NCBI GenBank assembly: GCA_965178125.1
Contig: OZ237749.1
Location: 1,178,001 to 1,200,551, forward strand
Length of the DNA: 22,551 nucleotides
Origin: Bilabrum cf. latius
Taxonomy: Eukaryota
Direction of reading: 5' to 3'
In this document: piece by piece, positions 1-22,551 of the stretch
Layout of the letters: every line of letters starts with the position of its first letter
How positions within the stretch are numbered: the first letter of the stretch is position 1
Program-made: the position numbers and the translations under genes
The notes under the pieces: generated by a model
The model's database searches: none
What the model saw: only the letters and a program-made list of their open reading frames with translations
What the model was told of the DNA's origin: nothing

Positions 1-2679
1 GCTCTGCGTCTAAGGGGTGTCCGGGAGCGGTACTTCCACATCGACGACGCCATGGGCCTCGACGCAGCCGGCAAGGCCTCGGGGGGGCGGGATGCGTCTG
101 CAGCAGCCGCAGGGGGTGGAGGCTTGCGGCCGGCAGGGTATGACACGAAGGATCCGGTGAGCTGCGTCACCGCCAGCAGGTAGTGCATGCTAGTGGGTCG
201 GGCATCAGGCGCGGTGTCAAGGTACACCCTGCCGCACCTGGTGCAGGATGCAGAGTACAGGCTGCGCAAGCCAGCAGCCAGGCTGGCTCTCAACTGCGAC
301 AGTACAGTGTTCAGTGTGGTGGACGACTCGGGCTTCCTGTCTTTCTTCGACACGAGGAGGCACCGGGTGGACCCGTCCACCGGACAGTCCGTGGAAGGCG
401 AGCAGCTCCCCGAGGAGCGCAAGGATGCGTGGGCCATGCGGTGGGCCGAGGACTCCCCGGAGCTGTTCGCGTCGATGGAGAAAACCAAGATGATTGTGTA
501 CAGGGACTGCAAGCCAGGTGACCCGGTGCTGTCCAGCGGCTACCTGGGGCGGTTCAGGGATCTCCGGGTGCAGGTGGCCATGCTGGACGACGTGATGGTG
601 GAGCCGGACCTGGCCAAGGTGAGTGACTGCGTGCTCTTCCACGAGACCAAGTCGCTCGAGGAGGCGTAGGTGCTCATCGAGTCAGCGTCGCCGCAGAAAG
701 CCGTGCAGTACATCCAGGAACATTCGCACCCCAGGCTGTGGCGGCTGCTGGCCGAGGGCGCCCTGGAGCGGCTCGATTTCGCGACTGCAGAGCAGGCCTT
801 TGTGGGCGGGCAAGACTATGCCGGGATCTAGCTCGTGAAGCGGTTGCGGCGGCTAGGTCATAACGCCAAGCAGAAGGCCGAGGTGCACGTGCACTTTGGC
901 AGGTTTCAGGACGCAGAGGACGCCTACCGCGGGATGGACAGGCTGGATCTCGCGATCGAGATGCGGGCCAGGGTGGGTGACTGGGCTCGAGCACTGCAGC
1001 TCGCATCGGAGGGAGAAGCAGACGGGGTGGATCGGATTGTGGCTGAGTGCAGGCGCCGCATAGGGGACCAGCTGATGGACCAGCAGCAGTGGACCAGGGC
1101 CGCGGAGGAGCTGGCCAAGACGGATGACAAAGCTGCGCTCATCAAGTGCTACCGCGCCATGGACGACTTTGACGCGCTGGCCGGCCTCGTGGAGGAACTC
1201 CCGGATGAGTCGCCGCTGCTGGTGGAGCTCGGGAGGGCGCTGCAGTCCGCGGGTGTGGCCCAGCCAGCCGTGGAGGCTCTGCTCAAGGCGGGCTAGCCGC
1301 AGGCAGCCGTGGACTGCTGCGTGCTGCTCAACGAATGGGACAAGGCCATCGAGCTGGCGCAGACGCATGACTTCCCGCAGGTGGAGTCTTTGCTCAACAA
1401 GTACGCCGCCCGGCTCCTGGCCAAGGGTCAGGTGATCGCCGCCATCGAGCTGTACCGCAAGGCTGGCAGACATGCAGAGGCTGCCCACTTGCTAGCCCAG
1501 CTCGCGGAGAGTTCCTTGGCTGCTCGCAAGTCCCCGCTCCGTGCGAAGAAGTTGTTCGTGCTGGCCGCACTGGAGGTGGAGAGCTTCCGGCAGCAGGCGG
1601 CGGACAAGGCCGTCGAGGATGCTACTGCTAAGGGCGGGGGCGCGGTCACTGCGGCAACCGCCACTGCCGCCATGACGGCCACCATGATGGACACCATGCT
1701 GCGGACTAATGCCACGCTCTCGGCGTCCACTGTCGGGGGCGAGCGAGCAGCGAAGCGGGCCGCGCGCACGCTGGACAACGCCTGGCACGGAGCCGAGGCT
1801 CTGCACTTCTGGATGCTTGGGCAGCGGTAGCTGTACGCGCGAGAGTTTGATGCGGCGATGGCGACTGCGGCAAGGCTTGCGGCACTGTACGAGGACGTGC
1901 TCCCTGCGAGGGACGTGCACAGCCTGCTGGCCCTCGCTGCCTTCAGAGCCGGTTTCTTCGGTCTTGCCTCCAGAGCATTCATCCGACTTGAAGCCGTGGC
2001 GGCCGGGGAGGACGAAGCCGCGGACGATGCGGGGGCTGGGGGGGGTGCGAAGGCAATTGGCGGTGCGGCTCACGTGAGCGGCGGCACCGGGGCGGGAGTG
2101 AGCCTGGCCACAGCCGCCACTACCATCATGGGGGGCGCGGAGACCGCCTCTGATCTGGCCGCCGCTCTGGGTGCCATCCCGCTGCCGAGGCCTGCGACTG
2201 CGGGGCTCGGGATGGCCGCGGGGCAGCTGCCCACCGAGGCTGCTCAGGCCATGGAGGCCGGTGGGTTCGGCGCAGGGGCGGCGGGCAAGGGCGGCGTCGG
2301 CTCTGCTGCTTCTCTTGCCCTCCAAGCGGAGCAAGCCAGGAGACAGAAACAAAGGGCCCGCGAGGAGTACGAGCAGCTGGCATTCCAGCTGTTCATGAGA
2401 CACCCCCCTCGCGACCCGCAGACCCGCATGCACCCTTGCCCGCACTGCAAGGAGGGGGTGCAGGGCTGGCAACCCAACTGCTCCTCGTGCGGGGCGCTCT
2501 TCTCGCCCAGCGTGGCATCTGGGCTGCCAATTAGGGGTTAGCCTTACTATCGGTGTGGGAGGTGTAAGCACAAGTGTCTGCTGCATGAAGTGGCTGGACT
2601 TGGGCTCAAGTCTTGCCCGCTCTGCCACGAGCCAATCGACACCGAGCAGGTCGAGCGAAGGTAGAGCCAGGGAACCTGA
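1..2679 (+). CDS. WDR35: IFT-A subunit IFT121/WDR35, 5'-truncated by the window edge (about 892 C-terminal aa; TAG=Gln)
   Basis: Frame +1 is continuous from base 1 to TGA 2677-2679 if TAGs at 181, 667, 829, 1294, 1828, 2539 and 2662 are sense. WDR35 motifs: PELFASMEKTKM, HPRLWRLLAE, AAVDCCVLLNEWDKAIELA, AIELYRKAGRH, LDNAWHGAEALHFWMLGQR*LY, and C-terminal Zn-finger pairs CPHC/CSSC and CGRCKH...CPLCH. Confidence 0.95.
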
Positions 2680-3562: not shown

Positions 3563-5845
3563 ATGCGAACAGTAGCTTCTATTCTTATTGCAACAGTCAG
3601 TTGTCTGGCTGGGTGCAGTGCGTAGTTGTCGGTTCCGCTCAGTGCGTCAGCCGCCGAAGCTGCAACTGCTGCAGCAGTTGGTACATTCGAGGACCCAACC
3701 AGCAACTCCCATGCTCGATTTGCGGCAGCCAAAATCACCTCTATGAGTGAGCAACTCCCAGGCACCTCGGTGCAGTTCCCAAGCGCCAGCAAGGCACGAG
3801 CATGCAAGTCGCTGCAGTCCAGTCAAGGTAGTGATGCTGATATGGCCTTGTCATTCGCTGCGGCTGCTCATCTCGATTGTAAATGGGTATCGAAGCCTTC
3901 CGCTGGCGTAAAGAAGGCAGTCTCCGGTGCGCTTGCCTCAAAATCGGTCCCGTCCATCCTTGCGGCCCTGGAGGCCGCAAAGCACGCACCAAAGCTGCTG
4001 GATGGCAAGCTAGTGGGTGGTAGTAAGAAGGAAGCATCTGACCTCGTGCAGATGCTAATTGACAGCTTTGATGCGTCTGGCGAGTCTGCTTGGGCACCGT
4101 TCAGCTCGGATGACGCGCCTCGTAGCGCCGCCGTGACCTCGATGGCACTGCGCTCCTTGGCTCTAGTCGCTGAGCTGGCGTGTCCCAGCAGCGACGAGGG
4201 CGAGGAATGCCAGTCTATGAGGCAGTCAGTGGTGGAGGCCGGTGCACAAGCTAGTGTTCTGCTGGACAAGGCCGGTGTGGCCGGTCCTGGATCGAGCGGG
4301 GATGTCTCCCTCTCGTTGGAGGTCTCGGACTGGCTGCCCGAGAGGGAGGAGGCTCTCGGGGATGCGATGCTGACCAAACAGGCACGAGCGCAGGTGGAGG
4401 CGTTCTGGGCTACCCACGGCTCCCCAGCCCAGGCCACGGGCCAGCTGGCAAGCGCGCTGATGGACCTGCACGCAGTGACCAGAGCCGACCTTGAGGTGAC
4501 CGCTGACCAGCTGGCGGCCATGGCGCAGGCACTCGTCACACGGGCTCACGAAGCGGCCAGCACAGGAAACGTCGAGCAAGCAGCTGCAGCCCTGGATGGG
4601 CTGGTGGCGCTGTCTCGCCGCAACGTGGTGTCCGTCCCCGTGGCCCTGCAGGTGGTCCCCGCCAAGGGAGACCGCGTGGCTGTGCGGGCGTCCGACCCCC
4701 TGGGTGCGCCTCTGGCCGATGCCAAGGGGTGCGTACTGCGGGCACAGCTCGCCAGACAACTCAGCGGGCCGGAGGAGTCTGACGATCTCAAGATTGATCT
4801 GGAGTTCTCGCTGAGGAAGCCCAAGGCGGGTGCCAAGTCGCAGGACACCGTGTTCGTGGCCAAGGGGGTCTCCGCTGCTCTCTCCGCCCAGGGAGGCACC
4901 TTCGAGCTGGACCTCACTTTCGCCCCCCCGGACAGCCCATCACATGGGCCCCCGCTGCACTCGGTCGAGGCCACCTCCCGCGCCGTGCGGCTGCCCCTCA
5001 AGGCGGCTCTCAAGAACGGCGAGGTTCTCGTGAGCAGCTCGCCAAGGGCCAGCGATGACTCCGCCGTGGTCTCGCGCTCTGACATCGATGCCAAGGGTAG
5101 AGGCGCGGCCACTGTCACGGCGGGCTCGGCGCAGTACGTGCACGTGCTGTTCTCCGTGACGGCCTCGGGCGCCTCCATGCAGCCCCACCAGGCCCTCGTG
5201 CGTCTGACTCCGAGGTCAGGCCCCGGCTCAGCGGCGTTCTTCGTGGCACGGGTCGACTCTGGCGATGAGTCGGAGGGTGGATCGGTCACCATGCGGGCAA
5301 GCATCAACGTAGGCGACCGTCGCGAGCTTGGCGCGGCTGCCGATGGCGGCGCGTTCGATGCTGCCATCGTGATCGGAGACTCTCGCCTCAGCGTCGGCCT
5401 CGAGGTGCCAGTGGGCACGGTGGTGCTGGAGACCCCCTCCCCGCCCCCCGCCCAGGAGGAGATCCTCTACTCCAAGCCGCTGCTGCACGAGAGCGACACC
5501 GCCACGGCCCCTCTGCGGGAGATCGTGCACCAGTTCAATCCCCCGGAGAAACAGCCCCCGATTGTGGTGCCTCTGGCGGTGACGGGGGGCCTAGCTGCCG
5601 TGCTGGCGCTTTTCGTGACCACCGTGGGTGCCCTCAGCCACTCGTGGCGGTCTCCGGGGGCTGCCGGGCTGGGGCTGCTCGCAGTAGTGGGCTCCATGCT
5701 GGCAGTGCTGGGCCTGTACTTCTTCTAGGCTGGCCCTGTGGACAACGCTTTCACCGCGCTAGCCCTGCTGGGCATCCTGTCGGTGCCAGCGCTATTCGTT
5801 GGGAGGTCGGCTCTGGGCGCGCTCGCGGCGCAGGATGCCAAGTGA
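3563..5845 (+). CDS. RPN2: Oligosaccharyltransferase subunit ribophorin II (Swp1/RPN2), 760 aa
   Basis: Signal-peptide-like MRTVASILIATVSCLAGCSA, then TAG 3623. Contains the PHQALVRL motif and EIVHQFNPPEKQPP (RPN2 EIxHxFRxPEKRPP), followed by three hydrophobic segments. The third lies after TAG 5726. Stop TGA 5843-5845. Confidence 0.88.
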
Positions 5846-5987
5846 AGAATATGGTGCTGTCTAGGTGTATCGGTGCATTCAACGAAAATGATGCGGCCCT
5901 GCCAAGGGTAGGACAGCGGGTTTGAGTTGGTATATGGTGGTTGCAATAGTCTAGTCTAGTGCGAGAATGCAACGTCTACGAGGTCTA

Positions 5988-6739
5988 TCAATCCCCCATA
6001 AATATCCTACTCGCGATATCTCCCACCACCCAATCGACTCCTTCCACAAGCCCGTCTCCTGTGTATGCTGAGCACCCCTCGATACTCCAGTGCCTTCCTT
6101 CGTACACTGGGTGCGTTCCAAGTTCGAGAAGCTCAGCGATCTCCTTTGGCGGCAACGCACCTTTGATGTCCTGCTTGTTCGCGAACACTAGCAACGATGC
6201 GCCAGCCAACTTCTCCTGCTGCAGGAGACCGAATAGCTCTTTCTTGCAGTCCAGAAGCCGCTTCTTGTCGGCCGAATCAACTACCCAAACTACCCCGTCC
6301 GTAGACTCGAAATAATTCTTCCAGTATGACCTAATTGTCGTCTGACCGCCAACGTCCCATACATTCAACTTGTACCTGCAAAATTCAACGGGGCAGGCAG
6401 GTACCAAACCGCGCTAGCGGACAGAGTGCAGCACAGAGATTTCGAACGGTCATGAGACTTTCGGATGCCCTCACGACTTGTACTCTAACGTCTTGATATC
6501 AAATCCAAGCGTGGGTGAGATGGTACTGATATCTTCCCCATTAAATTTCCTGAGAACTGTAGATTTTCCAGCGTTGTCAAGTCCCCTGCGAACATTAAGA
6601 TTGCAAGTCGCACCGTTCAAAGGCATAGCATTCGTGACGTGATCCGAGTAGTTCGGACTATACCTCTGGCTCACAGGATGAGAATTCGCATCTCTTTTTC
6701 TTTCTACTTCAACTTCTTCAAGATTGTGAGCAGCCCCAT
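5988..6739 (-). CDS. ARL2: ARF-like GTPase ARL2, 187 aa, exons 6739-6675, 6585-6475 and 6375-5988
   Basis: [64 protein letters not shown] at codon 12 (6706-6704); stop TGA 5990-5988. Confidence 0.96.
6376..6474 (-). other. Spliceosomal intron 2 (99 nt) of ARL2
   Basis: GTGAGG...TGCAG; splicing gives LEYKSYKLNVWD. Confidence 0.9.
6586..6674 (-). other. Spliceosomal intron 1 (89 nt) of ARL2
   Basis: GTGAGC...CGCAG; splicing gives RILILGLDNAGK. Confidence 0.9.
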
Positions 6740-6860
6740 TGCTACGGGAGTATACAAGTCGGGGAGTGAAACTGTTGTGCTACAGTGCAATGCATACAAC
6801 ACTCGTCACACAGTGGTCTCGCTCGATTTCGCGTTTGAAACAAACGATTGCTACAGCTCC
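6740..6860. promoter_or_regulatory. Putative bidirectional promoter between ARL2 and RFC4 (121 bp between start codons)
   Basis: Divergent ATGs at 6739 and 6861. Contains GCTACAGTGCA and CGATTTCGCGTTTGAAA. Confidence 0.55.
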
Positions 6861-8110
6861 ATGGCAGCAACTAGTGGCGCGCTAGGAACTGGCAAGAAAT
6901 CTGCTTCAAAGGTCATTCCTTGGGTAGAGAAATAGTAAGGCGCCAGTTGACAGCACAGTGTGCTATGTTTCTTCTTGGATTCGTAGCTGCCGAACCGTCC
7001 AATTTCCGCTTCGCAGCCGCCCCAAGAAAGTTTCGGAGGTGTCCTTTCAGGATGAAGTTACAAAAGCTCTCGAAAATTCCATCCGAACCGGCGATGTAAG
7101 TACATGGCTGTTGGTGACAGTTTGCCTAGCCTCCAGCGCTACGCTGCACTTGTAGCTTGATCAAAACAGTGTCCTCGCAGTTGCCCCACTTGCTATTTTA
7201 CGGGCCCCCGGGAACAGGTAAAACGAGTGCAGCCAACGCTGTCGCAAGCGAATTGTTTGGGCCGGAGCTGATCAGAGCCAGGAAGCTAGAATTGAATGCG
7301 TCAGATGAGCGAGGAATCTCGGTCGTTCGCGAAAAGATCAAAGCGTTTGCGTCTGGATCAGTTGGATATGGTGCATCCACCTCGGCAGCACCGCGACGAA
7401 GAGTCCCGGCTTTCAAGCTCATCGTCTTGGATGAGGCGGACTCCCTCACCCCGGATGCTCAAGCAGCCTTGCGGCGAACGATGGAGACGTATTCTCACGT
7501 GACGCGGTTCTGCTTGATTTGCAATTATGTGAGCAGAATCATCGAGCCACTGACCAGCCGGTGTGCCAAGTTCCGATTCAAGCCCCTGGACGACGGGAGC
7601 ATGCGAGCGCGGCTCCGGCTCATCGCCGACGCCGAAGGGGTGGCGATGGACGCAGAGGCGGAGGGGGCGCTCCTCTCGTCGAGTGGGGGCGACTTGCGCC
7701 GGGCCATCGCCACCCTCCAGGGCACGGCTTAGATGCACGGCGTTGACGGCGTGTCCAAAGACAGGGTGCTGGCCATGAGCGGGAGACTGCCGGATGCCGT
7801 GTCGAGGCGGTTCTGGGAGGCGGCTCGCGGGGAGGACGTCGCTCGCGTGGTGGCGGTAGCCAAGGAACTGTCCAGCCTGGGCTTTGCTGCATCCGACGTT
7901 CTGGAGCGGCTGTTTGAGGACTCGATCGAGCTTGGCGCCAGCGCCAGCAGCAAGGCCAAGGCTCGCATTGCTAAGTGCCTGGCGGAGAGCCATAAGGCAT
8001 TGCTGGACGGGGCAGATGAGAGCCTGCAGCTGCTGCATGTGGCCATGTCGGTGCAGCGCGCCCTGCACGATTGGGTCATCCCGGATGAGTTCGCTATGCG
8101 GCAACTCTGA
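6861..8110 (+). CDS. RFC4: Replication factor C small subunit (human RFC4 / yeast Rfc2 type), 360 aa, exons 6861-6934, 7017-7095 and 7181-8110
   Basis: [96 protein letters not shown]. In-frame TAG 7730; stop TGA 8108-8110. Confidence 0.93.
6935..7016 (+). other. Spliceosomal intron 1 (82 nt) of RFC4
   Basis: GTAAGG...CGCAG; it splits the TAC codon of PWVEKYRP. Confidence 0.92.
7096..7180 (+). other. Spliceosomal intron 2 (85 nt) of RFC4
   Basis: GTAAGT...CGCAG; splicing gives [11 protein letters not shown]. Confidence 0.92.
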
Positions 8111-8221
8111 TACATGTGCTACTGGATAGAGAGGGGTTAGCCTATGTGCTACTAGATAGAGAATCATCCTAGCCAAGTGGTCAAATCAGGCTAGTGTCCG
8201 TGACATCAACGCAAATCCAAA

Positions 8222-9034
8222 TCACAAACCCGCCTTCCGATTCTGCTCGCGCCTCCTCTCCGCCTCTTCCTTTCGCCGCTTCCGTTCCGCTCTCTTCTTC
8301 TTCCTCTCCACCTCGTCCTGCTTGCGCTTCTCTCGGAGCTCACGAGCCGCTACGTACGACTCTGCCGGGGGAGGCACCCATCCTTCTAATTTGCCCACCC
8401 TTACATACTTGCCCGAGTAGAACTCGACCTGCTCTTCCAGCTCGAGTGTTTCACGGGCCCCGAAATCGCTAAGGTCCGGATTCTCGACGTCATCCTTTTC
8501 TAAAGAACCAGTAGGGAGACTTTTACTGCCATCACGGCCTGCAAATATATGATACGGGGCATCAGGGCCGTAAAAGTGTGCACCCGCCGATACATCGAAC
8601 ACAATGCCGCCGCATGCTAGCAGGATCGGCTTAGTAGGATCCGTCCCGTCATACGCGCGCAACTCCTCCTTAGTGTACTATCGTTCACCGCTAATCTAGA
8701 TGACAAGAAATGACCACATCTGCTGCACCTGTATCCAGCCCATGCCAGCAACACTATCGTCAGGCATGTACGGGCACCCCGTGCGAGCAGTTGAGATCTC
8801 GTGAAAGTTGCCAGCTGGAATCAACAAGGTACTCAAACACCCAATAGACCCTACTATGGCCATGAGCACCCAAACAAAATATGGGAGCCCCTTTCGGCTA
8901 GATTTTGCCTTGCCATGAGGCGCACGCTCTGCTTCTTTCGATTCAACGCCTGTACTAGAGAGCATAGACCTACGTTCCCGCCTATTCCGCACATTACTGT
9001 TATTTTCATCACGTATGCCGGGTTCCGGCTGCAT
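8222..9034 (-). CDS. Membrane-anchored cytochrome b5-like heme/steroid-binding protein (MAPR family), about 270 aa
   Basis: Hydrophobic segment YFVWVLMAIVGSIGCLSTLLIP, then R*YTKEELRAYDGTDPTKPILLACGGIVFDVSAGAHFYGPDAPYHIFAGRDGS...YSGKYVRVGKL. TAGs at 8698-8696 and 8680-8678 link the TM part to the domain. Stop TGA 8224-8222. Confidence 0.88.
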
Positions 9035-9160
9035 CAATGGCGCAGCCTCTTGATTCGTTTCTGCTACACCTCCCGTGCCGTGACGTAGTGCGCTACAGTG
9101 CAGTGATTAGCCGCGATTTCCGTTGAGCCGGCACTTCTGCAGCGATTTAGCCAAGTTCAC

Positions 9161-10419
9161 ATGTCAAGTCGGCGCAAGTGAGTCTTTATTGTGTATGATG
9201 TAAATATATCTTTCTACAGACCCCGGATTATCCTCCTATACTCTATAATTGCCGGCGTAAATTCCGCCTTTATTGCAACCGCAGAGGCATGCCACATAGC
9301 ATCTTGGAGCAACGGGAGAAGGGTTTTGATTTGTCGGGATTATCCTCTGGCAAGTTGGACTACAACCCACTGTACGACTCCAACCTGAGACACTTCTTTG
9401 AGAGTGGTGGAGTGCAAAGGATTCTCAGGAGCACTGGCATGCTAGACTCAGACGGGCGAGTAATAGACATGGACAGGTTCAAAAGCAAGGTAAATATTAT
9501 TGAGCAAGAGTTCAGAACAGTTGAGGCGGAGGAAGAACAGCGTCGTAGGGAGGAAGAGGCGATGCGCAAGCGAGTTAGACAGAGACGCTACGAGGCTCTT
9601 GAAAGGGCTAGATAGCAGGAAAAACTGCAAAAAATGCGGTAGGATAGGAAGATTCGTGCTCAAATTCTCAGAGTAGCGCGGGGTATCGCCCCCGCTGGTC
9701 CCCCAGCTGGCGCAAAGAGAACATCAGGTCGATCAGTGCTTGCGCACAGCGCAAGCGCTGGCGTCCTAGGCAGCCGACCTGGCATGGGTGGGTCCCATGC
9801 TGCAGCCGCTGGCCTATATGGACAAGGTGGCGGCGCGAGGCGCAAAGTCAAGCGCAAAGGCAAGAAGAAGAGGGCTGCCGCGAGACAAGAAGCAGCCGGG
9901 TTTGCATCGAACTCCCCCCCCTTCGCTGCTGACGTCCATCGCACTCACGTGCCGGCAAGAGCTCCCGACGAGAGCAGGTTTCGCGATCCTATGGCACATG
10001 ATGAGTATGACCGTGGAGCTGTGGTAGAGCTTCCCAGGGAGGCTGGTGCGGCGGAAGAGCCGGCTAGCTCTGCCCCACTGGCACCACCACGCGCTACCTC
10101 TGAGCGGGCGGCGAGCCAGGCCTAGGCAGGAGGGGCTAGCTAGGCCTACTAGGCAGGAGGGGCGTACGACTATATTGATGTGCTCGCCCAAGAGGCCCGC
10201 AAAGACGCCGAGCGCATGGCGGAGTCTGCTAGAAGCCTTGGGGGCGGCACCGGCGGAGCCTCGGGGGCTGGGACGGCCAGATCTATGCGGTCTGCTGGGC
10301 TAGGTGACATTGCCGGTGCAGTTGCACCCGGCACAGCTGGGAGCGCAGACGTTGTCGTGACCGATGCAGACGGGTTTGCCATCCCTCCGGCCACAGATGC
10401 GGATGGCTTCAATTTGTGA
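9161..10419 (+). CDS. Uncharacterised protein with an ERICH3-N-like motif, coiled coil and low-complexity tail, about 383 aa, exons 9161-9177 and 9285-10419
   Basis: YNPLYDSNLRHFF...ILRSTGMLDSDGRVID resembles the YNSLxDxHLxxYF...L...G.I...GR motif I recall from ERICH3-type ciliary proteins. Frame is continuous over TAGs at 9613, 9640, 10123, 10141 and 10150; stop TGA 10417-10419. The first exon is inferred; ATG 9289 is an alternative start. Confidence 0.7.
9178..9284 (+). other. Predicted spliceosomal intron (107 nt)
   Basis: GTGAGT...CGCAG; joins MSSRRK to GMPHS in frame. Confidence 0.65.
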
Positions 10420-10476
10420 ATGATCCCATGCGAAACTAGATAGTATGTTGTGCACTATGTGAATGATACAGTCGCG

Positions 10477-13400
10477 TCACCTCCGCTTGCCCCGCATCTC
10501 CTTGGAGCGGTGCCTCTTCATGCCCTCCTGGTGCTGCTTGCGGGATGCCTGCTTTTTCGCATGAGCACGCCGCAAACCTGCCTCATCCAGCGCCAGCCCG
10601 TTCCCCTGCTCCCGGCGACTGCCTGCCCCCTTCCCGGAGCCGCCCCTGCCTTGTCCACTAGCGCGCCCTGCACCGGCACTCGGCCGGCGCTGCGAAATAT
10701 CGCCAGCCCGTGCGGCTAGCGGGATGGCGCGGCTCCTGCCCTTGCCCTTCTGCCTCCAGTCCATCTTTGGAGCAGCACCAACAGCCGCGGCATCATCATC
10801 ACCATCCCCCCGGGCCCTGTTGGTCGCGTCCCCGATGCTCCGCTTGGTGTCCTTGGTCCACCGACGATACAGCTCGCCGTGCTCCTTACCATCCGACCGC
10901 ACCACGGCGCCGCTCTCTGTTCTCAATCGCTTGTCGCCTCGGCGGTCTGCTGCCTCCCCGTCTGTAAGTCTCACGTACTTGCGCTTGCGCTTGTCCCAGT
11001 GCAGTCGCTGCTACTGCGCCGCCATATCTTTCTGGTCATCAGCAACCACATCCACGACAGAGCTCTCCAGACGGGTGAAGCCCTCGATACCCGAAGCAGC
11101 CCCTCCCCTCGTTGCAGTCTCGCTGTTCGCCACCCTGTGCACCTGCATCGCGCTGGCCTCCCGGCGCTCCTCCGCGCTGGGGCCTTGCTGCACGAACAGA
11201 GCCGGGTCCCGGAATGCGCCAGTGGCCAGATCGATGTTGGAGGCGCCAACCCCGGCCTACTCCAAGTGCATGGCAGCCTCCAATGCAGCGCGCCGCCTAG
11301 CTGCTTTGGATCCTTTGCCGGCGCCGCGGTCAGCTCGCTTCATTGAACGCAGATGGACAGATGAGCGGCTTGCGCCCTTGCTTACCCGCGATGTTTCCCC
11401 AGCTGAGGAGCCGTTTTCATCGTCCGAGGCGCTACTGTCCTCCGACTCCGGACTCTTCTTCTTTGCAGCCGCCATCCTCTCCGCCGTCCTCTCTTTTTTC
11501 CTGGCAGCTGCGAGCGCCTCGCCCTTGCCCCACAAATCCTGCCGGGTCGTGTGCCTCCGCCGAGCAGCCTCCATGATTGCAGCCCCATGGTCTCGCTTCA
11601 CCTTGCTGCCGTCCGTCTCCAATATGGTCTGCTTGGGACGAAAGGCACGCAAAGACTCGATCGTCACTTGGTCCGCTCCTGCTGCAAGCCCTGCCGCAGA
11701 AGATGAGGAGGAGGAGGCTGGCTAGTCAGCATCCCCCCTACCGGACAGAATATCGTCCGCGACCGCCTGAGCAAGCCGACGAGCATGCGCACCGACAGCC
11801 TCGGCCTTGCCCCTCCGGCGGCCGCTGCTCTTGGACTTCACTGGGGCAGGTGCCGCCCCTTGCGCCAGAAGCAGAGGGTGCTCCGTGGCAAAAATGCGCC
11901 GCTCCAACCGCCGCACCTCGGCTGCTCCTCGCCGCGTTGCCTCCCTGCAAGCGCGCCTGTAGGCCTGCATGCCTCGTGCCGCTGTCTTGAGCTGGGACCG
12001 CATTGTATCGCTGTGCTTGAGGGCCTGTTCTTGTTCCTCCAGCAAAGCAGCGCGCACCGGTGCTGGCACCCCGCCCACATGCACGTCGAGCGGCGTCATC
12101 GTTGCAATATTGTACTGCAGCTGCCTCTAGCCACTGCCAGCTGTGTCAGCTGAGTCGGTCAACCGCGCCACGGACACATCCTCTGTTGCGGCACCCGAAC
12201 TAGCTACCTCTGCCTGCTCCGCTGGCTCTACTTCTTGGCTGCCCGGTAGTGGCAGCAAAATATCATCCAGGTCGTGCCCTAGAAAAGCGGCGCAATCGGC
12301 CAAGTACGGCGCGTCAGCCGGTGAGACGAACTATATGGCAGTTCCTGACCTGCCTTGTCTGGCGACTCGACCGCACCTGTGCACAAACAGCTTGGGCTGG
12401 TCCGGCATGTCGAACTGCACCACGTTGTCCAGCAGAGGGAGGTCGACGCCTCGGGCTGCCACGTCTGTTACAATCATCACACGAGCCTGCTTTCTCCGGA
12501 ACACCTCCATGTGCGCTCGTCGCGCGGCAGCATCCATCGAGCCAAAGATGGCGATGACACCGCCGGTGCCCGTGGAGGCAGTGCGCACGTCCTCTTCCTG
12601 CAGTGCGCGAGTCTCGCGGGCCGCGTCTGCAGCTGCGCGGTTGCGGTACTTTCCCGCCGCGCTGCCGCCAGGCTTGGCCCCTTTGGCAGCCCCTCCGGCC
12701 CCTGCACCCGAGCCGGCTGCCCGGACGCAGTCGTTCGGGACAGAGCAGGCCCGCAGGAACTGGAGGAGGAGCTCAGCCTGGTGCTTAGTAGCAACGAAAA
12801 CCATGGCCTGCTGGTCGGTAGGAATCACAGCACGCAGCACATACAGCAATAACCCCAACTTTGCATGAGTTTGCACTCCGAAGAAAGCGAGTCGGAGCTA
12901 GTCGCTGATCTTGGACTCGGCGTCGAGGCGAATCATAGCCGGGTCTCGGAGCCCAGCGCGAGCGAACTCTGCTACTCTGCGAGGCAGCGTCGCGGAGAAC
13001 AACAGCGTCTATCTGGCAGGCGACACCCTGGCCAGGATCTCCCGGAGCTGGTCGGCAAACCCCTGCTCAAACAGTCGGTCTGCTTCGTCGAACACGAGGT
13101 ACTCGACTGCGTTCAGGCTAAACTCATCCTTGGGAATTTCTGCCAATAAGTGCATAAGTCGGCCCGGGGTACTGACAACTAGATCGGGCGCAGTTGCCAA
13201 AGCTTCAAACTGAGCTGTCATGGAGTCTCCGCCTACCAGCAGGGCGCACCGGCAAGAAGCAAACCTACCCAGCTACAGAGCAAATTTCATCGTCTGTTGG
13301 GCAAGCTCCCTAGTTGGGGAAAGAACCAATACCCTAGGCCATTTCAAATTGCTTCCGCGTTGCTCAACTGACTTTCCTCCCTCGGTTGCCGCTGAGGACT

Positions 13401-13845
13401 TTTGCCGCAGCCCCTTGGTGCCAGCGAGAATACGCTGCAAGCCAGGCAACAAAAATGCAGCTGACTTGCCTGATCCAGTTCTTGCCATTGCTACGATATC
13501 CTTTCCAGATAACGAAATTGGAAGTGTTTGTGCCTAGATCTGCGTAGGCTCGTTGTACTTCAACTGCTTAATGCCTTTCAGCAGCAGAGAATCTAGCCCG
13601 AAACTCGACCATATCTCTTTTCTCTACCTCTTCTTAGCTTTTTTTGAGGTCTAGTCTGGGTTGCCTTCTTCTACTGGCACAGTTTGTACCTGTCCCGCTG
13701 GTTTGGAAAGCACGCTTGCGGCTGCCGAATTTGCCCTTGCACCTGACACCACCGCATTGCTCGTTGCTTTTGCAGTCAAAGATGATTGCGCCTGCTAGAG
13801 CTCTCTCTCGAAGTCTACTTCTGCGAGTCCCGCAGCCAGATCCAT
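10477..13845 (-). CDS. DDX54: DEAD-box RNA helicase DDX54/Dbp10, about 1122 aa, apparently intronless
   Basis: Q motif [81 protein letters not shown], and the Dbp10 C-terminus WDKRKRKYV...RTESG...GELYRRW. Twelve in-frame TAGs (plus-strand CTA at 13795, 13651, 13624, 13534, 13273, 13009, 12898, 12331, 12127, 11722, 11257, 11011); stop TGA 10479-10477. Confidence 0.95.
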
Positions 13846-14144
13846 CTAGAATTCTGTTCCTACTCAATGCTTTGGTGAAACTGCAAGTGCAGTAATTTGT
13901 TGCCCACCGGAACGAACGTTCTCTTGCTTGACGTGGCAATATTTGTTGTGCCCAAATACGGTAATAATTCTTTTATTAGATGATATCGTATATAGTTCAC
14001 AGTTCAACTCCACTTCGGCGGAGGCTTTCCGGCTAGCTCCTCTCATGCCTTTTACCTGAGAGGAACACGGTTTGCCTCGTTACGCTAACGATATGAAAAT
14101 TTTGGACACTTCTCTTCGGAGACCCGTTTCTCGTGAATTTAGAT

Positions 14145-16856
14145 TCAAGTCGGTGGAGACCACTTCCGCATTTCCTTTTGGACGGTCGCTGCGTACCGCT
14201 CCGGCGAGAAGCTTGTGCGTAGGTCAGGCAGCGGCGCTGGTGGCATGGCCGGTATGCCTTCCAAATGCTCGGCCTGTGCCTCTGACCTCTCGCGAACTCC
14301 ATGTGCAACGCCAAGAATAGATGCACCACTAGCTGGTCCTCTCGTAGCCACCAGCCGCCCGGTACTTGTCCCAATGCCTTCCAATGCAGGTGTACCTGCC
14401 AGTGCAGCTGCCGCTGCAACTCTCTCGTTGGACCGGGCCACTGCCTGCATCAAGTCGATCTCCACTGCTTTAAATCTACTTTGACTGCCCACTTCATAAT
14501 TACCGGCAGCTATAACTCCACCAACACTCTCTACGCCCACACGCGCACCTTGATGACGTGCGCCGCCACGCCTAATGTCCGCAGCCTGGACTGGTGCCAT
14601 GTCCGCAGAGGCCACACCCTGGACTGGTGCCATGTCCGCAGAGGCCACACCCTGGACTGGTGCCATGTCCGCAGAGGCCACACCCTGGACTGGTGCCATG
14701 TCCGCAGAGGCCACCTCCTGGACTGGTGCCATGTCCGCAGAGGCCACACTCTGGACTGGTGCCATGCCCGCAGAGGCCACACTCTGGACTGGTGCCATGT
14801 CCGCAGAGGCCACACCCTGGACTGGTGCCATGTCCGCAGAGGCCACCTCCTGGACCGGTGCCATGCCCGCAGAGGCCACACCCTGGACTGGTGCCATGTC
14901 CGCAGAGGCCACCTCATGGACTGGTGCCATGCCCGCAGAGGCCACCTCCTGGACTGGTGCCATGCCCGCAGAGGCCACACTCTGGACTGGTGCCATGTCC
15001 GCAGAGGCCACACTCTGGACTGGTGCCATGTCCGCAGAGGCCACACCCTGAACTGGTGCCATGCCCGCAGAGGCCGCACTCTGGACTGGTGCCATGTCCG
15101 CAGAGGCCACACCCTGGACTGGTGCCATGTCCGCAGAGGCCACACCCTGGACTGGTGCCATGTCCGCAGAGGCCACCTCTTGGACTGGTGCCATGTCCGC
15201 AGAGGCCACACCCTGGACTGGTGCCACGCCAACTGATTCAATTATTACTGGAGACCACTGAGTGCGCTGACGCAGATTCTAGCCTACTTTACTACTGAAT
15301 CGAGGCGTATGGTCCATTCCTCTCTCCGATTGCAGGTGCGTGTGCTGCACCGGAGGGGTGTGCTTCCAAGAGCTGCCAGAGCAGAAAGCTGGGGAGACAG
15401 TCTCTCGACCAGAGCCCAGCCGTGCGCGAGCATCATTCCCCTGCTAATCATGCAGTGGCCCAATAGAGTTGCCGACGACAACCCCCAGGCGAGCCAGTCG
15501 TCGACGCAACCGTGCCACCGTTATCTCAGGGTCCTCTACCTTAATCGCCTCCAATGTGGGGTACATGCTAGCGGATCCAACTCCAATCATGTTCTCTAGT
15601 TCCGGTGCAGCTTTGCTTGACGATGAATCTGAGGCACTACCCCGACCTGCCGTCAGGTACTACACAGTCTCAAGCGGCTATATATCTACAGGATGCATGC
15701 GGCGATCCTAGTCCAACCTTAATTGCTGCGCTAGTTGATCAGCAGGACTTGGTTGCAACGATGTGCATGCAGCAGATACGGCCGTCAGCCTCATGCTGGT
15801 TGCCGCCGGGGCAACACCCGTGTCCGTCCTACGCTTGGGTGTGCCTGTTTCGGAAAGCAGATGGCCACGAGTTGCGCCCGAATCTGTTTCTCGCATGGCG
15901 GAGAGATTTCTAGCATCACTATTGGTGGCCTTACCTCTCAGAGCCACATCAATAATGTCGTGCTTTGCGGTCATGCCTCCCACCGCTGTCGCAACCGCCG
16001 CATCACGAGGCTCACACATTCCAGGCAGGATTGACTACGGACTGTGCACCGGGCTGTGCATGCCACCCCTTTCTTCTTGAGATCCCACCCTATCTGGAAC
16101 ATAGGATTTGGTGGCTTCGTCATATCTGAACTTGGCTCTCGTTCTTCGCACTTCCGACCTGGATAGGGGCAGAGCTGGTACCACTGGGGTAGGATCCTAG
16201 CACCCACGCGAGCGAGCCGCTTCATCATCACAAACTATATCACCGTGACGACGGCTGTGTTGTACTTCAATTTCCGCATGGCTCTCCTGCTTGCCAGGAG
16301 GTCCACCCCCACATGATTCGGGCACTGCTGCTTCGGACTACCGTGTCAGCGCATCTGCTCCAACTATGGATGTGTGCGGCAATGAACTATCAGTTCGCAC
16401 TATCGATGCAAGGTCTCCAAGTAACTTTCGAGCTGTTCGAGGTGATGCCGACTGCAAGATGGCACCAAGAGCGTCGCCGCGGTCCCTGCTAAAGAATGAA
16501 GTTGCTGAATGGCTACTGCGCGCCGAATCCACGGAAGTTAATCCATCCACATAATCAATACGCGCGCGATCCTGTTGTCCAGAGCTTGATTCTATTTCAA
16601 GAGACGGTTTGCGGGACGATGCTGGCGGGGACGAAGATCGACGAGGGTAGCCCGGACTAGCATGAACCCTGCTGTCTTCCCCGACTCTGTCTTCACGCTT
16701 CGATGGTGGTGCCCTTCTGCGTGGGAAAGACTGTTTGAATCTGGGAATCGAGGTCCCACGCTATATGCCGCGACATGCACACCAATATTATTAGCACAAA
16801 AATCATCGAACTCACAAAAATCGCTATCTGTAGTACTCCAAATCAATTGACGCCAT
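14145..16856 (-). CDS. Orphan low-complexity protein with an 11-aa tandem repeat, about 878 aa, exons 16856-16816 and 16740-14145
   Basis: One minus-strand frame has no TAA/TGA from 16787 to TGA 14147-14145. The spliced model has 9 in-frame TAGs. The first exon MASIDLEYYR*RF is joined by a GTGAGT...CCCAG intron. No recognisable domain. Confidence 0.7.
14586..15227. repeat. Coding minisatellite, 33-bp unit, 19 full copies plus a partial, encoding MAPVQ(G/E/S)VASA(D/G) on the minus strand
   Basis: Head-to-tail copies of CTGGACTGGTGCCATGTCCGCAGAGGCCACACC with point variants and no indels. Confidence 0.97.
16741..16815 (-). other. Predicted spliceosomal intron (75 nt)
   Basis: GTGAGT donor and CCCAG acceptor in compatible phase; it supplies the ATG missing from the long frame. 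Confidence 0.6.
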
Positions 16857-17008: not shown

Positions 17009-20000
17009 ATGGCAACAACGTCTGGATTCGATCCAGCATTCGCTCATCTTGCTAAGATTGGTGCTGATCTCCGCGGTACATCGAGTCAATCAAGACCACG
17101 AGCAGATCAGCTAGGAACCGCGATATAGTGCTTACCAGCCTGTCTGCATCTTTTTGCGGTTGCCCTGCTTGACTAGACCCGCGCTGGTCCCAGTAAAGGT
17201 GCTTATCATATGGATATGATATGCCAGCAAGTTTCAGACTATGTCATTTCGGCTTTGCAAACGACAGACACACGCTGTCCAACGTGGTGCATAGATTGTT
17301 TTGGGAATTGCTCCACGCTTCTTCTCGCCGTTGACTAGGCCTGGAGGGACCCCAGCATACTTTCAGCTGTGCTATGCTTTCGGGTTGCCCAGAAGTTGGT
17401 TCGGACACCGGGCGTTGAAGTCGTCCATGTGGCGGAAGGTATCGCAGGAATAGCGTTGATGCGGACCCGCGACTTGATGCATGATATCGTTGATTTCAGT
17501 CCTGCATACTGTGATGGCACCAGTCATAAAAAGCGCCCAGAGTCTAGCAGGCGATAGTCGGACCTTGGTCCTTTGAGCGCAAAGATTGGACGGAGTAGCT
17601 TAGGCGAGCCCCTCGACCCCAGTCACCTGCCGGTGGCAGCCAGCCGAGGGCGATCGGTTCCACAGTCAACTGTGTCTGGCTTTCATGGAGCTAGTCCTAC
17701 CACAGGGATTCGAGTCCAGCGAGCACTTTCTGAGCCCCTGGAGACCTTCAGGCCTGAGCGCGTGGGTGCAGGAGCTCCCAGCAGTGGTCGCAGCTTCGAT
17801 CGAACGCAGCACCTATCCAGGGCGGCATCAAGAGAGGCAGCCGGAGGCACCATGCCGACATCTCGATCGAAGCTGGACAGGGTGTCAGACATGAGTAGTA
17901 CTGACTCCGCTGGCGTAGTTCACGCATGGGTCGCTCGATGCGGCTACGCGAGGGCCGCAGTGGCTCGAGTCTTAGTGTGCTTGGAACAAGCTGACCTGCC
18001 AGGTTCGTGGGTATCAAGGTGTGCGACAGCAGCGCGAAAGAGCTGGCCGAGACTGCCAGTGTGTGCCAACGCGCGGCTAGTGGCATGTGCAATTGCAGTA
18101 GCCAGCCCAGGTGTGCTGGATCTCTTGCATTGGCAGCAGACTGTTGCAGCAGAGACTCTGAGCCGCGCGCAGCGTGCTTCCCCAAGGTCTGGAATTCATG
18201 AGAGGGTTGCTCGACCTCTAGACCGAGCCCGGCCAATCCTTGGACTGCTGCAAGAATCTTCGAGATTCGTCGCTACACGATGCGACGCGGCTGAGGTTTC
18301 GTATTTGTGGGGATTGCGGCCGCCTGCCACTGTCAATAGCAAATCTAGCTCATATGGCGCAGCCACGGGAGCGGCTTCACCGGGACAAGGGCCTCTATAG
18401 AGCTTGTTTCGGCCATTGACCATCTCTCTAGCGTCCAGGCTTTTATTGGTAACGTCATCGGGTGAGGTTGAGAGCGTTGCTATCGCCCTTCTCGAAGGTG
18501 GAATCCTTGTGTTCGGCACGGAGCAGGGACACCGCGCCCCAAGCTAGCTGTGGACGCCTGCACCGCGCCCTACACTTGCATCTAAACTGAATAGGCGACC
18601 AGTTCAAACACATGGGGTTGGCACCGCATCAGATTCCTGGATCAAGAATGCAGATATAGCCGGGCGAGTCGCATTCAACTCATCGCTAGCAAGCATCTCG
18701 ATGCTAGACGGTCGTCCCGAAAACCCTGACAAAGATGGGTGGGCAGTCCACTTTCAAGCCGAGGACTGCCAAGCCATGGCTCTTGAGCCTTCAGCAAATC
18801 AGGGTTCGGCGAGGACATAGTTCAGTTCGTGGGGCATCATTGGTGGCAACAGCATAGGGCTCGTAGCGTGCTCAGCTCCAGAGAAAACGGCTGCGTTAGA
18901 GCTGTCAAAGCTTTTGCCTGATAGAGCCAGTACTCCCATCATATGCTAGGGTGTTGAGCGAAGCATGATTCTGCTGTGCCGTGGGCAAGCTGAGGCAAAC
19001 AGCTGGAGCCTGGCAATCAAAGCCGAAATGGTGGGAGCGTGTGCTGCTGGCACCAAGTTGCCTCTACCAGCTCCAATATTGGTGCCACGTGCTTTATGGC
19101 CTCTTCGGTCTGTGCTACTCCCCGGCATTGATAAAGTTTCGGCGTAGCGTGAGTCGGCTGTGGAACCAATGCCGCCGGCTGACGCAAACGTGTTCGCGTG
19201 CGATCTGTGCGGTCGGCTAGCGCCTGGACATGGAGCGCCACCCCACGTCCCTATGCTGCTAATTCCCGACCACACGACGAATGCCTGGCCATGCAGCTGC
19301 TGCACGCAGTGTTTAAGCAGGATGGCTCTGGAGGATGACTGTGACGAGGACGTCGGCGCTCGTGACTTCGGTGCCAGGCTAGTCCTGTTGCAGAATAGAG
19401 TTGGGAGCAACCATTGCCCCTCCCGGTGCCGATTCGCGGCCTCAATGGCCTTTGGGGTGTCGAGAGACTAGGCGACTGCGTGGCTTGATGAGGCTGAACG
19501 TACTGTGATTTCCAGTGGTGCACGCGGCTAGGCTGTTCCCTCGCCACCGGGCAACTCATTGGCTCGGGCGGTGCTGTACACTATATCGTGTGGGTTACGT
19601 GTACGATTAAAAAGCGATGCGACCGTGGTGGAGCTGCATAGGCCTGATTTAGCATCCACTGACAGCCCTGCAGACACCACGTCATCAGAGCCGCAAGGTC
19701 TATCCAGCTCCGATGAGGTTCATTGGAAGAAGTGGTTTATGCCAGGTCCTGACCGCCATGCGTTTCTTCAGGGCGAGCTACGACGAGGGGCGCGCCGTTA
19801 TTGTCTGCTGGAGGAAGCCCTGTGCCTGAGGCTTCGTGCAGTTCGTTTGGATCCTTCCGTGCAGATTAGCAAGCTTGCGCTGGAGCAGCTCAGTACTCTG
19901 TGGAGACGAACTGGTCTACTCCGTGGCGATTTTGAGGCTGCAGGGCCTGCGAGACCAGTTGCAGACGACGCCGCTCATCTCAAAATACCTGCCAGTGCCA

Positions 20001-20839
20001 ACACCCCGAATGGATAGCACAGCTCTGCATCTGCCCCACAATCGAACCACCTTCATGTGCTGCGTTGGCGGTACGATTCGTACAATCGTGTTACTCGCAA
20101 GCGCGTGTGTCTAGCACCGGGCACGAGGGTCCATGTGGTGGAGCCACATCGCACGGCAGCTCTAGTAGCACAAGGCAGGGTACCTGCGTGCCCGGACCCC
20201 ATGAGCATTGAGAGCTATGTCCTCGTTTCTGTCGCACAAATGCGCGGCGTCCATGCTGCCAGCAGCTATCATGCAGCACCAGCCAGTACTACAAGCTTGA
20301 CTATTGGCCTTCACGAAGTTAGGCCGCTGGGGCCTGGCAGGGTGGAAGTACGCGATGCTAGCATAACCGAAGAAAGCCCTTCTGGAGCAGGTTCGATGCT
20401 AGCAAATCCCAGCCTCGTACGACGGCAACAAGCAGGACACTCAGGTGGCGATGCTAAGCTTGTCGATGCAGAACTGGTTTGGGTACCTCTTGACTTTTTG
20501 CGATCCCAGGGATCCAGTCTCGCAGTTAGTCCTGCTGATCTATCAGGTCTCGGATGGGATGCCTCTGCCCAGTTTGCAGCCTATGAACAGTCTGGAGTTG
20601 CCACGTACACTGCCACGGATTGGGGCTAGGACGAAAGGGCGAGTAACACATCAACCCAGGCAGGGCGCAGCCTGGAAGTACCAATTCAGGAAGGCAAGTC
20701 AGCCACGACATTTGCATCGGCAACCCCAGTACCTAGCACAGATGAGGATGATTCAGAATCACCTGACCTGGACCACAAAGGAGATGCAGTCGACTTCGAC
20801 TTGGCTAGGGGGTCGGCAGCAGCGTTTGAATGGGATTGA
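17009..20839 (+). CDS. Large orphan protein, 1276 aa; possibly a highly diverged DH-PH-Zn-finger-SH3 (RhoGEF-like) protein
   Basis: Frame +2 runs from ATG 17009 to TGA 20837-20839, interrupted only by 13 TAGs (17126, 17174, 17336, 17555, 18398, 18545, 18818, 18947, 19145, 19469, 19529, 20015, 20627). Six ORF-track fragments share this frame. Domain resemblance is weak and judged by eye. Confidence 0.75.
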
Positions 20840-20926
20840 CTTCAGAAGGTTGAACAAGTCCTTACGGAGCATCTGCTTTCACTTCAACCCTTTACTTTGC
20901 CATTGTCTACCTGTAGTCCGGTGCGA

Positions 20927-21906
20927 GTCCTGCCCACCTTCCAACCCTGCCACCACTTGCTCCCGTTCGTGATGGCCCATCCGGAGCGTATCCTGCCCAC
21001 CTTCCAACCCTGCCACCACTTGCTCCCGTTCGTGATGGCCCATCCGGCGCGTATCCTGCCCACCTTCCAACCCTGCCACCACTTGCTCCCGTTCGTGATG
21101 GCCCATCCGGCGCGTATCCTGCCCACCTTCCAACCCTGCCACCACTTGCTCCCGTTCGTGATGGCCCATCCGGCGCGTGTCCTGCCCACCTTCCAACCCT
21201 GCCACCACTTGCTCCCGTTCGTGATGGCCCATCCGGCGCGTATCCTGCCCACCTTCCAACCCTGCCACCACTTGCTCCCGTTCGTGATGGCCCATCCGGC
21301 GCGTGTCCTGCCCACCTTCCAACCCTGCCACCACTTGCTCCCGTTCGTGATGGCCCATCCGGAGCGTATCCTGCCCACCTTCCAACCCTGCCACCACTTG
21401 CTCCCGTTCGTGATGGCCCATCCGGAGCGTATCCTGCCCACCTTCCAACCCTGCCACCACTTGCTCCCGTTCGTGATGGCCCATCCGGCGCGTGTCCTGC
21501 CCACCTTCCAACCCTGCCACCACTTGCTCCCGTTCGTGACGGCCCATCCGGAGCGTATCCTGCCCACCTTCCAACCCTGCCACCACTTGCTCCCGTTCGT
21601 GATGGCCCATCCGGAGCGTATCCTGCCCACCTTCCAACCCTGCCACCACTTGCTCCCGTTCGTGATGGCCCATCCGGCGCGTATCCTGCCCACCTTCCAA
21701 CCCTGCCACCACTTGCTCCCGTTCGTGATGGCCCATCCGGCGCGTATCCTGCCCACCTTCCAACCCTGCCACCACTTGCTCCCGTTCGTGATGGCCCATC
21801 CGGCGCGTATCCTGCCCACCTTCCAACCCTGCCACCACTTGCTCCCGTTCGTGATGGCCCATCCGGCGCGTGTCCTGCCCACCTTCCAACCCTGCCACCA
21901 CTTGCT
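20927..21906. repeat. Subtelomeric minisatellite, 63-bp unit, 15 full copies plus a partial
   Basis: Tandem (A/G)TCCTGCCCACCTTCCAACCCTGCCACCACTTGCTCCCGTTCGTGATGGCCCATCCGG(C/A)GCGT units, nearly identical. Confidence 0.97.
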
Positions 21907-22551
21907 TTAGGGTTAGGGTTAGGGTTAGGGTTAGGGTTAGGGTTAGGGTTAGGGTTAGGGTTAGGGTTAGGGTTAGGGTTAGGGTTAGGGTTAGGGTTAG
22001 GGTTAGGGTTAGGGTTAGGGTTAGGGTTAGGGTTAGGGTTAGGGTTAGGGTTAGGGTTAGGGTTAGGGTTAGGGTTAGGGTTAGGGTTAGGGTTAGGGTT
22101 AGGGTTAGGGTTAGGGTTAGGGTTAGGGTTAGGGTTAGGGTTAGGGTTAGGGTTAGGGTTAGGGTTAGGGTTAGGGTTAGGGTTAGGGTTAGGGTTAGGG
22201 TTAGGGTTAGGGTTAGGGTTAGGGTTAGGGTTAGGGTTAGGGTTAGGGTTAGGGTTAGGGTTAGGGTTAGGGTTAGGGTTAGGGTTAGGGTTAGGGTTAG
22301 GGTTAGGGTTAGGGTTAGGGTTAGGGTTAGGGTTAGGGTTAGGGTTAGGGTTAGGGTTAGGGTTAGGGTTAGGGTTAGGGTTAGGGTTAGGGTTAGGGTT
22401 AGGGTTAGGGTTAGGGTTAGGGTTAGGGTTAGGGTTAGGGTTAGGGTTAGGGTTAGGGTTAGGGTTAGGGTTAGGGTTAGGGTTAGGGTTAGGGTTAGGG
22501 TTAGGATTAGGGTTAGGGTTAGGGTTAGGGTTAGGGTTAGGGTTAGGGTTA
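21907..22551 (+). repeat. Telomere (TTAGGG)n, about 107 units
   Basis: TTAGGG array to the end of the window, G-rich strand running 5'->3' toward the end. One TTAGGA variant at 22501-22506. Confidence 0.99.

Follow-up and report, generated by a model that had tools for sequence, protein, structure and literature searches.

The stretch of DNA analysed here, 22,551 nucleotides long and called the window below, carries nine genes in front of a chromosome end. Central to the present analysis is one of them, an intronless open reading frame (ORF) of 1122 codons on the minus strand (10477..13845), which starts with the ATG at 13845 and is terminated by the TGA at 10479-10477. By its sequence, this ORF is a DDX54/Dbp10-type DEAD-box RNA helicase orthologue, as the original prediction had proposed from the letters and the reading frames alone. 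Pfam recognizes a DEAD domain (E 1.5e-44, residues 101-293), a Helicase_C domain (E 1.8e-17) and, towards the C-terminus, the DBP10CT (NUC160) domain PF08147 (residues 932-998, minus strand 10852..11052; 42.2 bits with the cut-off at 27, E 9.5e-11). Among solved structures, the closest are human DDX54 (8fkt_NI, E 9.2e-98) and three DBP10 chains. The DDX54/DBP10 chains of the pre-60S structures (8fkt_NI, 8i9v_Cb and 8v84_3 among them; E-values from 9e-98 to 7e-82) share with the window protein the helicase core, the DBP10CT domain and all motifs, from which the latter differs by its greater length of 1122 amino acids, with stretches of low complexity inserted between the two RecA-like domains as well as in the tail, and by the fact that 12 Gln positions of the query helicase are written TAG.

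The consensus motifs of DEAD-box helicases are AxTGSGKT/S for motif I, DEAD for motif II, SAT for motif III and HRxGRxxR for motif VI. All four are intact in the window protein, as ARTGSGKS for motif I or Walker A (codons 121-128, 13462..13485), D-E-A-D for motif II (codons 253-256, 13078..13089), S-A-T for motif III (codons 284-286, 12988..12996) and HRCGRVAR for motif VI (codons 489-496, 12358..12381), all on the minus strand. Under the standard genetic code the reading frame is nonetheless interrupted by 12 TAG codons, and it contains neither TAA nor an internal TGA. At the off-frame rate of these two triplets in the coding sequences (CDSs) of the window, 2.25% per triplet, a run of 1122 codons devoid of both has a probability of 8.5e-12, which argues that the frame is under selection and that TAG alone is tolerated in it.

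In-frame TAG at conserved glutamine positions

The glutamine of the Q motif serves adenine recognition in DEAD-box helicases. In the window, the minus strand reads CCT ACG CAG ATC TAG GCA CAA ACA CTT from 13548 to 13522, that is P-T-Q-I-[TAG]-A-Q-T-L (codons 100-108), with the TAG, codon 104, at 13536-13534, exactly in the letters that the original prediction had put forward as a Q motif with its invariant Gln encoded by TAG. With TAG read as X, codon 104 lies opposite the Q of PTPIQ in the DDX54/DBP10 chains, in an alignment ungapped through to motif I. Motif I begins 17 residues past codon 104, and the spacing is identical in human DDX54 and the three DBP10 chains, in agreement with the normal distance that had been claimed; the defining feature of the motif, a Gln 17 residues ahead of motif I, is present solely if TAG is read as Gln.

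Column counts for the helicase were taken from a MAFFT alignment with the best 120 of 5360 significant matches. In the column of codon 104, each of the 120 homologues has Q, so that the comparison with DDX54/Dbp10 orthologues, which might have placed the TAG away from the Gln column, places it on that column. The two further TAGs that had been pointed out in the same gene are likewise real, one of them being codon 279 (13011-13009) in R-[TAG]-TLLFSAT shortly ahead of motif III and the other codon 316 (12900-12898) in ISD-[TAG]-L. As all 120 homologues likewise have Q opposite codon 279, the Q motif is indeed a fully diagnostic site, yet it shares this rank with codon 279 and is not the single most diagnostic one. 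Among 159 query positions with at least 95% of one residue in the column, six are Q columns, at which the query has CAG four times and TAG twice; that two or more of 12 TAGs would fall by chance on these six among 1122 codons has a probability of 1.5e-3. Other TAGs of the helicase lie in variable columns, such as codon 945 inside the DBP10CT domain (11013-11011; K 67, R 42 and Q 4 of 120) and codon 74 (A 71 and S 24 of 120), and the columns of the remaining ones, apart from three discussed below, consist mainly of gaps or are variable.

The second gene which provides a deep alignment is IFT121/WDR35, identified by homology on the plus strand (1..2679), truncated by the window start, with seven TAGs and a TGA end. 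Its TAG codon 277 (829..831) stands in a column with Q in 83 of 102 homologues and TAG codon 610 (1828..1830) in one with Q in 89 of 98 filled rows, Q being also the residue of the best IFT121 chain and of human WDR35 at the latter position. For DDX54 and IFT121 together, log-odds of the column frequency of each amino acid over its background were summed over those 13 TAG columns in which half or more of the rows have a residue. Glutamine reaches +8.6 bits, while K (-16.7), R (-24.7), S (-26.1), E (-26.8), L (-50.2) and Y (-54.7) are all negative. Per column, TAG scores in a way similar to CAG (Q 0.66, K -1.29 and R -1.90 for TAG; Q 0.39, K -1.06 and R -1.44 for CAG). As a control, the same procedure assigned CAG, GAG, AAG, CTG, TCG and TAC correctly; for CAA, with just 12 columns, Q ranked first, yet with a negative score.

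A second count used the 648 columns of the two alignments that are at least 70% conserved. Fourteen of these are Q columns, at which the query codon is CAG in eight, TAG in four, GCA in one and GCT in one. Conserved columns are hit by eight TAGs, four of them on Q, and by 22 CAGs, eight of them on Q, and the probability that at least four of eight TAGs would by chance meet 14 Q columns among 648 is 9e-6. Smaller genes of the window add single positions: in the ARL2 gene, TAG codon 12 (6706-6704, exon 1) is opposite Q in three ARL2 chains, and the TAG of the RFC4-type gene (7730-7732) is opposite R in human RFC4. That TAG reads as glutamine in this nuclear genome, and not as a stop, is thus a well-supported conclusion from the sequence comparisons.

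TAG, TAA and TGA across the window

The use of TAG is a property of the whole window. The nine genes, 6045 codons altogether, contain in frame 160 CAG, 60 CAA and 51 TAG codons and neither TAA nor TGA; TAG is present in nine of nine genes, with one to 13 copies per gene, and all nine genes terminate with TGA. The TAG rate of the nine CDSs is 0.84% in frame versus 1.13% off frame, and the GC content at third codon positions (GC3) of the window genes is 0.52-0.80. As all nine genes use in-frame TAG, an intact paralogue of the helicase elsewhere, which the original prediction had regarded as potentially damaging, would be irrelevant for the reading of the codon.

The triplet TAA occurs 49 times off frame in the same nine CDSs and zero times in frame. 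If the TAR codons followed the third-base share of the CAR codons (CAA 27%), the absence of TAA among 51 codons would have a probability of 9e-8 for the nine genes, and of 4.6e-3 if solely the six genes with homology support are counted (CAA 19%, 25 TAG). The latter is the safer figure, since the three ORFs that lack homologues were delimited on the assumption that TAA is a stop. In the sample provided by this window, the code consequently looks UAG-only, as in NCBI table 15, and not of the table 6 type. No gene ends with TAG either (0 of 9), a sample too small to argue against a dual role of TAG as sense and stop codon. The final TAG of IFT121 (2662-2664) lies four codons ahead of the TGA, a place where a context-dependent TAG stop near mRNA ends would show.

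Relatives of the helicase in metagenomes offer a comparison. JGI contigs were searched with the helicase alignment, and the best 80 of 517 relatives show no more than 60% identity in any segment; a search with the single helicase protein as the query gave 134 pattern matches, none of which is a relative. The 27 of the 80 loci that were inspected by frame contained no in-frame TAG. By tblastn, a stop inside a high-scoring segment pair was found in 14 of the 80 loci and a TAG-only pattern in none of them. Seven of those 14 were read codon by codon, and four DEAD-box homologues, L057, L058, L061 and L080, carry both codons, with 6, 5, 5 and 1 TAG and 3, 3, 2 and 3 TAA, respectively, in the matched stretch. 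These four loci look, from their sequences, like loci of organisms in which UAR is read as Gln, so that a relative with the code of the window did not emerge from the loci inspected. They are 35-38% identical to the query, and their four to nine in-frame TAA and TAG codons are mostly opposite Q, R, E, A or K.

Spliced contigs covering the helicase gene

Of 17 public runs listed, eight contain 50% or more of the words sampled from 10400-14000, and contigs of four of them, X1, X5, X6 and X8, were placed on 5800-14000; X5 and X8 derive from one study and X6 from another, both distinct from the study that probably gave rise to the window. X1, a DNA-type run, spans 5800-14000 in one piece with the introns kept, and the window may derive from it. 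By comparison, the contigs of X5, X6 and X8 leave out five short intervals (82-107 bases) that begin with GT and end with AG in gene sense. Over the helicase ORF, the X5 (10452..13863) and X6 (10522..13857) contigs show zero differing letters and zero gaps, and the shorter X8 contig (13352..13856) includes the Q-motif TAG, which is written in the same letters in all four runs. The sole differing letter in 8.2 kb is a G>T at 9485 in X8. Contigs spliced like assembled cDNA in which the TAGs are unchanged argue against decay of the gene as well as against correction by a U-to-C change in the RNA. The helicase gene is probably expressed, on the evidence of contigs that by their nature cannot show RNA ends or levels.

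Two of the runs, X5 and X8, contain contigs in which 12220 is connected to 7934 through 27 additional letters, identical in the two runs, and loose ends are present at 7958 and 12203. Both 12220 and 7934 lie in GC-rich, low-complexity stretches coding for Ala and Gly, and the join is probably an assembly chimera.

Interpretation of the code

We consider it likely, with a probability of roughly 0.85, that the window represents a nuclear chromosome end of a GC-rich flagellated eukaryote in which, as judged from the sequence, UAG specifies glutamine and UAA is not a sense codon, a code of the table 15 type. The ribosome would then read through the TAGs of the helicase (the Q-motif Gln, the Gln before motif III and ten more) and stop at TGA. 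By analogy with other variant codes (PMC5304391), UAG may be decoded by a tRNA-Gln(CUA), which differs from tRNA-Gln(CUG) by a single base change and cannot read UAA, and eRF1 would be devoid of UAG recognition.

Several observations weigh against this interpretation. Within the helicase, TAG codon 505 (12331..12333) stands in a column in which the homologues have no Gln (S in 104 and N in 16 of 120), and would be a substitution if TAG is Gln, and the column of TAG codon 191 is E in 89 of 120. For codon 316, the Gln that had been put forward for human DDX54 is indeed found there, but the column is mostly D (87 of 120, with N 18 and Q 8), which makes this codon weak evidence. Four of the eight TAGs in conserved columns are hence off Q, on S, E and D in DDX54 and on R at IFT121 codon 223 (87 of 102); such scatter is no commoner for TAG than for the ordinary Gln codons of the query, and CAG scatters likewise. 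Three of the nine ORFs are without homologues, and their limits were drawn with TAA taken as a stop. The runs X5, X6 and X8 are not on record as RNA, their kinds being guessed, and X5 is marked 'probably DNA'. No tRNA gene and no Rfam family was found within the 22.5 kb of the window, a result that says little for the whole genome. TAA is also not seen as a terminator (0 of 9), for which the probability is 0.39, 0.13 or 0.04 at a true share of TAA terminators of 10%, 20% or 30%.

Among the alternatives, a decaying pseudogene, or TAGs corrected to CAG in the RNA, would explain the 12 premature stops that the helicase has under the standard code. It is hardly credible in view of a frame without frameshift and without TAA or TGA over 1122 codons (P = 8.5e-12), of helicase motifs that are all intact, of the same TAG pattern in all nine genes and of the spliced contigs that retain the TAGs without a differing letter over the ORF. 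A reassignment of TAG to another amino acid, be it Lys, Glu, Leu, Ser or Tyr, could draw on the individual TAG columns dominated by S, E, D, R or K; the summed scores (Q +8.6 bits versus K -16.7, S -26.1, E -26.8, L -50.2 and Y -54.7) and the two columns with Q in 120 of 120 rows, among them that of the catalytic Q motif, make it very improbable.

Closer to the interpretation as a UAG-only glutamine code are two explanations that retain Gln. UAA and UAG might both be Gln, as in table 6, with TAA missing merely from a small GC-rich sample, a reading in line with the lack of a TAA terminator in nine genes, with a GC3 of 0.52-0.80 that disfavours TAA and with the usual joint change of the UAR codons (PMC5304391). 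Zero TAA against 51 TAG in 6045 codons at a CAA share of 27% of CAR (P = 9e-8 for nine and 4.6e-3 for six genes), the 49 off-frame TAA triplets, by which the triplet itself is not rare in these CDSs, and the table-6-like metagenome loci, which carry both codons, unlike the window genes, render this improbable. The other explanation leaves the coding outcome the same and concerns the decoder, as UAG could be read as Gln by the near-cognate tRNA-Gln(CUG) after eRF1 has lost UAG recognition. It is compatible with the zero tRNA genes in the window and with the report that the responsible tRNAs are unknown for most variant nuclear codes (PMC5304391). Up to 13 TAGs per gene would, on the other hand, demand almost complete decoding of the codon, genes for tRNA-Gln(CUA) have been described from Tetrahymena, Condylostoma and Spironucleus (PMC5304391), and a tRNA gene missing from 22.5 kb has little weight, so that near-cognate decoding appears unlikely as compared with a dedicated tRNA-Gln(CUA).

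Chromosome end and phylogenetic position

Downstream of the last gene, a 63-bp subtelomeric tandem repeat (x 15.7, 20917-21906) is followed by TTAGGG x 107.5 (21907-22551), which together make up a chromosome end as identified by a repeat scan (20917..22551, plus strand). The telomere, the spliceosomal-type introns and the typical nuclear genes including one for intraflagellar transport indicate a nuclear chromosome end of a flagellated eukaryote. The GC content is 0.50-0.66 per kilobase across the window and the genes are densely packed. In one plus-strand frame of the telomere TAG is read 107 times. A minus-strand frame of 556 codons (20879..22549) was considered as a tenth gene and rejected as an artefact, since it runs without a stop across the 63-bp repeat and the telomere.

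Among the matches listed from a collection of 5.8 billion proteins, the closest homologues reach at most 54% identity for the helicase and at most 48% for IFT121, and the window's own helicase and IFT121 proteins are not among these matches. In a FastTree phylogeny of IFT121 (95 rows) the query is sister to Cafeteria with a support of 100. The same sister relationship with a support of 100 is obtained by IQ-TREE under LG+G4 with 33 hand-picked rows, where the query lies within a clade that includes the oomycetes as well (Shimodaira-Hasegawa-like approximate likelihood ratio test 94). The FastTree phylogeny of the helicase, for which 50 of 121 rows were used and most angiosperm rows dropped, places the query as sister to a four-row clade containing Cafeteria with a support of 99. 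The query and Cafeteria are both flagged for deviant composition, and attraction via a shared GC-driven amino-acid bias is possible. Our best guess on the basis of these two single-gene trees is that the organism is a bicosoecid-related stramenopile.

Comparison with known variant codes

Nuclear codes which separate UAG from UAA are rare, with one fornicate, one rhizarian, one green alga and a few ciliate lineages described in the available parts of the two articles consulted (PMC5304391; PMC11687900). In the fornicate Iotanema spirale, UAG alone is Gln and UAA is the predominant stop (PMC5304391), and Protocruzia tuzeti and two phyllopharyngean ciliate lineages have a UAG-only Gln code (PMC11687900). 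The window shares with these organisms the reading of UAG alone as Gln, the lack of in-frame UAA and termination at UGA. In contrast to Iotanema with its predominant UAA terminator, all nine genes end with TGA here and TAA is not seen as a terminator; moreover, the genome is GC-rich and the two single-gene trees point to stramenopiles and not to metamonads or ciliates. The nuclear codes of the rhizarian exLh and of Scotinosphaera likewise give UAG a meaning separate from that of UAA, namely Leu and Ser, respectively (PMC5304391; PMC11687900), while the columns of the window favour Gln (+8.6 bits) over Leu (-50.2) and Ser (-26.1). The organisms with UAR as Gln (table 6: many ciliates, Hexamita, Spironucleus, Streblomastix, some Ulvophyceae and Amoeboaphelidium) have in common with the window the change from stop to Gln and the UGA terminator, but use TAA as well, of which there is no in-frame copy in 6045 codons here.

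The type of code is accordingly already known as NCBI table 15, and most likely it occurs here in a lineage where it is undescribed. Full-text literature searches, with most subscription journals outside their reach and with sources available in part, found no report of a nuclear code change for stramenopiles, and broader searches on code change added none. An article on the genome of a MAST-3 stramenopile (PMC12614181), examined by a term search, makes no mention of the genetic code, stop codons, UAG or TAG and has no bearing on the present case. It is conceivable, if speculative, that a GC-rich relative of bicosoecids represents an independent, unreported origin of UAG as Gln, in which UAA is also out of use and UGA is the sole working terminator. 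Such a case, if true, would extend the independent origins to a new supergroup, represented by an intron-poor, GC-rich flagellate beside Cafeteria, and the compact genome would be suited to trace the changes in tRNA-Gln(CUA) and eRF1. As a practical consequence, annotation with the standard code breaks nearly every gene, with one to 13 TAGs in all nine, and table 15 would be required to annotate the genome.

Neighbouring genes and introns

Besides IFT121 and the helicase, four genes of the window belong to recognizable families. A Ribophorin II-like gene identified by homology (3563..5845, plus strand) has two TAGs and a TGA end. The gene for the ARL2 GTPase, recognized by homology and contig joints on the minus strand (5988..6739), consists of the exons 6739-6674, 6584-6473 and 6373-5988, with one TAG and a TGA end. 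The gene for an RFC4-type clamp-loader subunit on the plus strand (6861..8110), equally defined by homology and joints, has the exons 6861-6934, 7017-7095 and 7181-8110, again with one TAG and a TGA end. On the minus strand follows a gene with a cytochrome b5-like haem/steroid-binding domain (8222..9037), assigned by its domain match, with two TAGs, a TGA end and an uncertain start codon.

The other three are ORFs of no known family, for which no Pfam family was found at E <= 0.01 (376, 801 and 1276 codons). The first of them (9289..10419, plus strand) contains five TAGs, has a TGA end and is preceded just upstream by a GT..AG intron (9178-9284). The second (14145..16550, minus strand) contains eight TAGs and a TGA end and includes a 33-bp tandem repeat (x 19.5, 93% matches, 14585-15226), equivalent to about 19 copies of an 11-residue MAPVQGVASAD-like unit. 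The third (17009..20839, plus strand) has 13 TAGs in its 1276 codons and also a TGA end.

The ORF 9289..10419 (TGA 10417-10419) and the helicase (TGA 10479-10477) are convergent with 57 bp between them. The contigs of both genes end at 10446-10452, one of them with a loose run of nine A at 10452, which hints at very short abutting 3' untranslated regions, though contigs cannot prove RNA ends. The five introns (6374-6472, 6585-6673, 6935-7016, 7096-7180 and 9178-9284) have a GC content of 0.40-0.56 versus about 0.6 in exons, and the two minus-strand ARL2 introns are shifted by one or two bases at equivalent cut sites. In gene sense, the 3' end is CGCAG in four of the five introns and TGCAG in the fifth.

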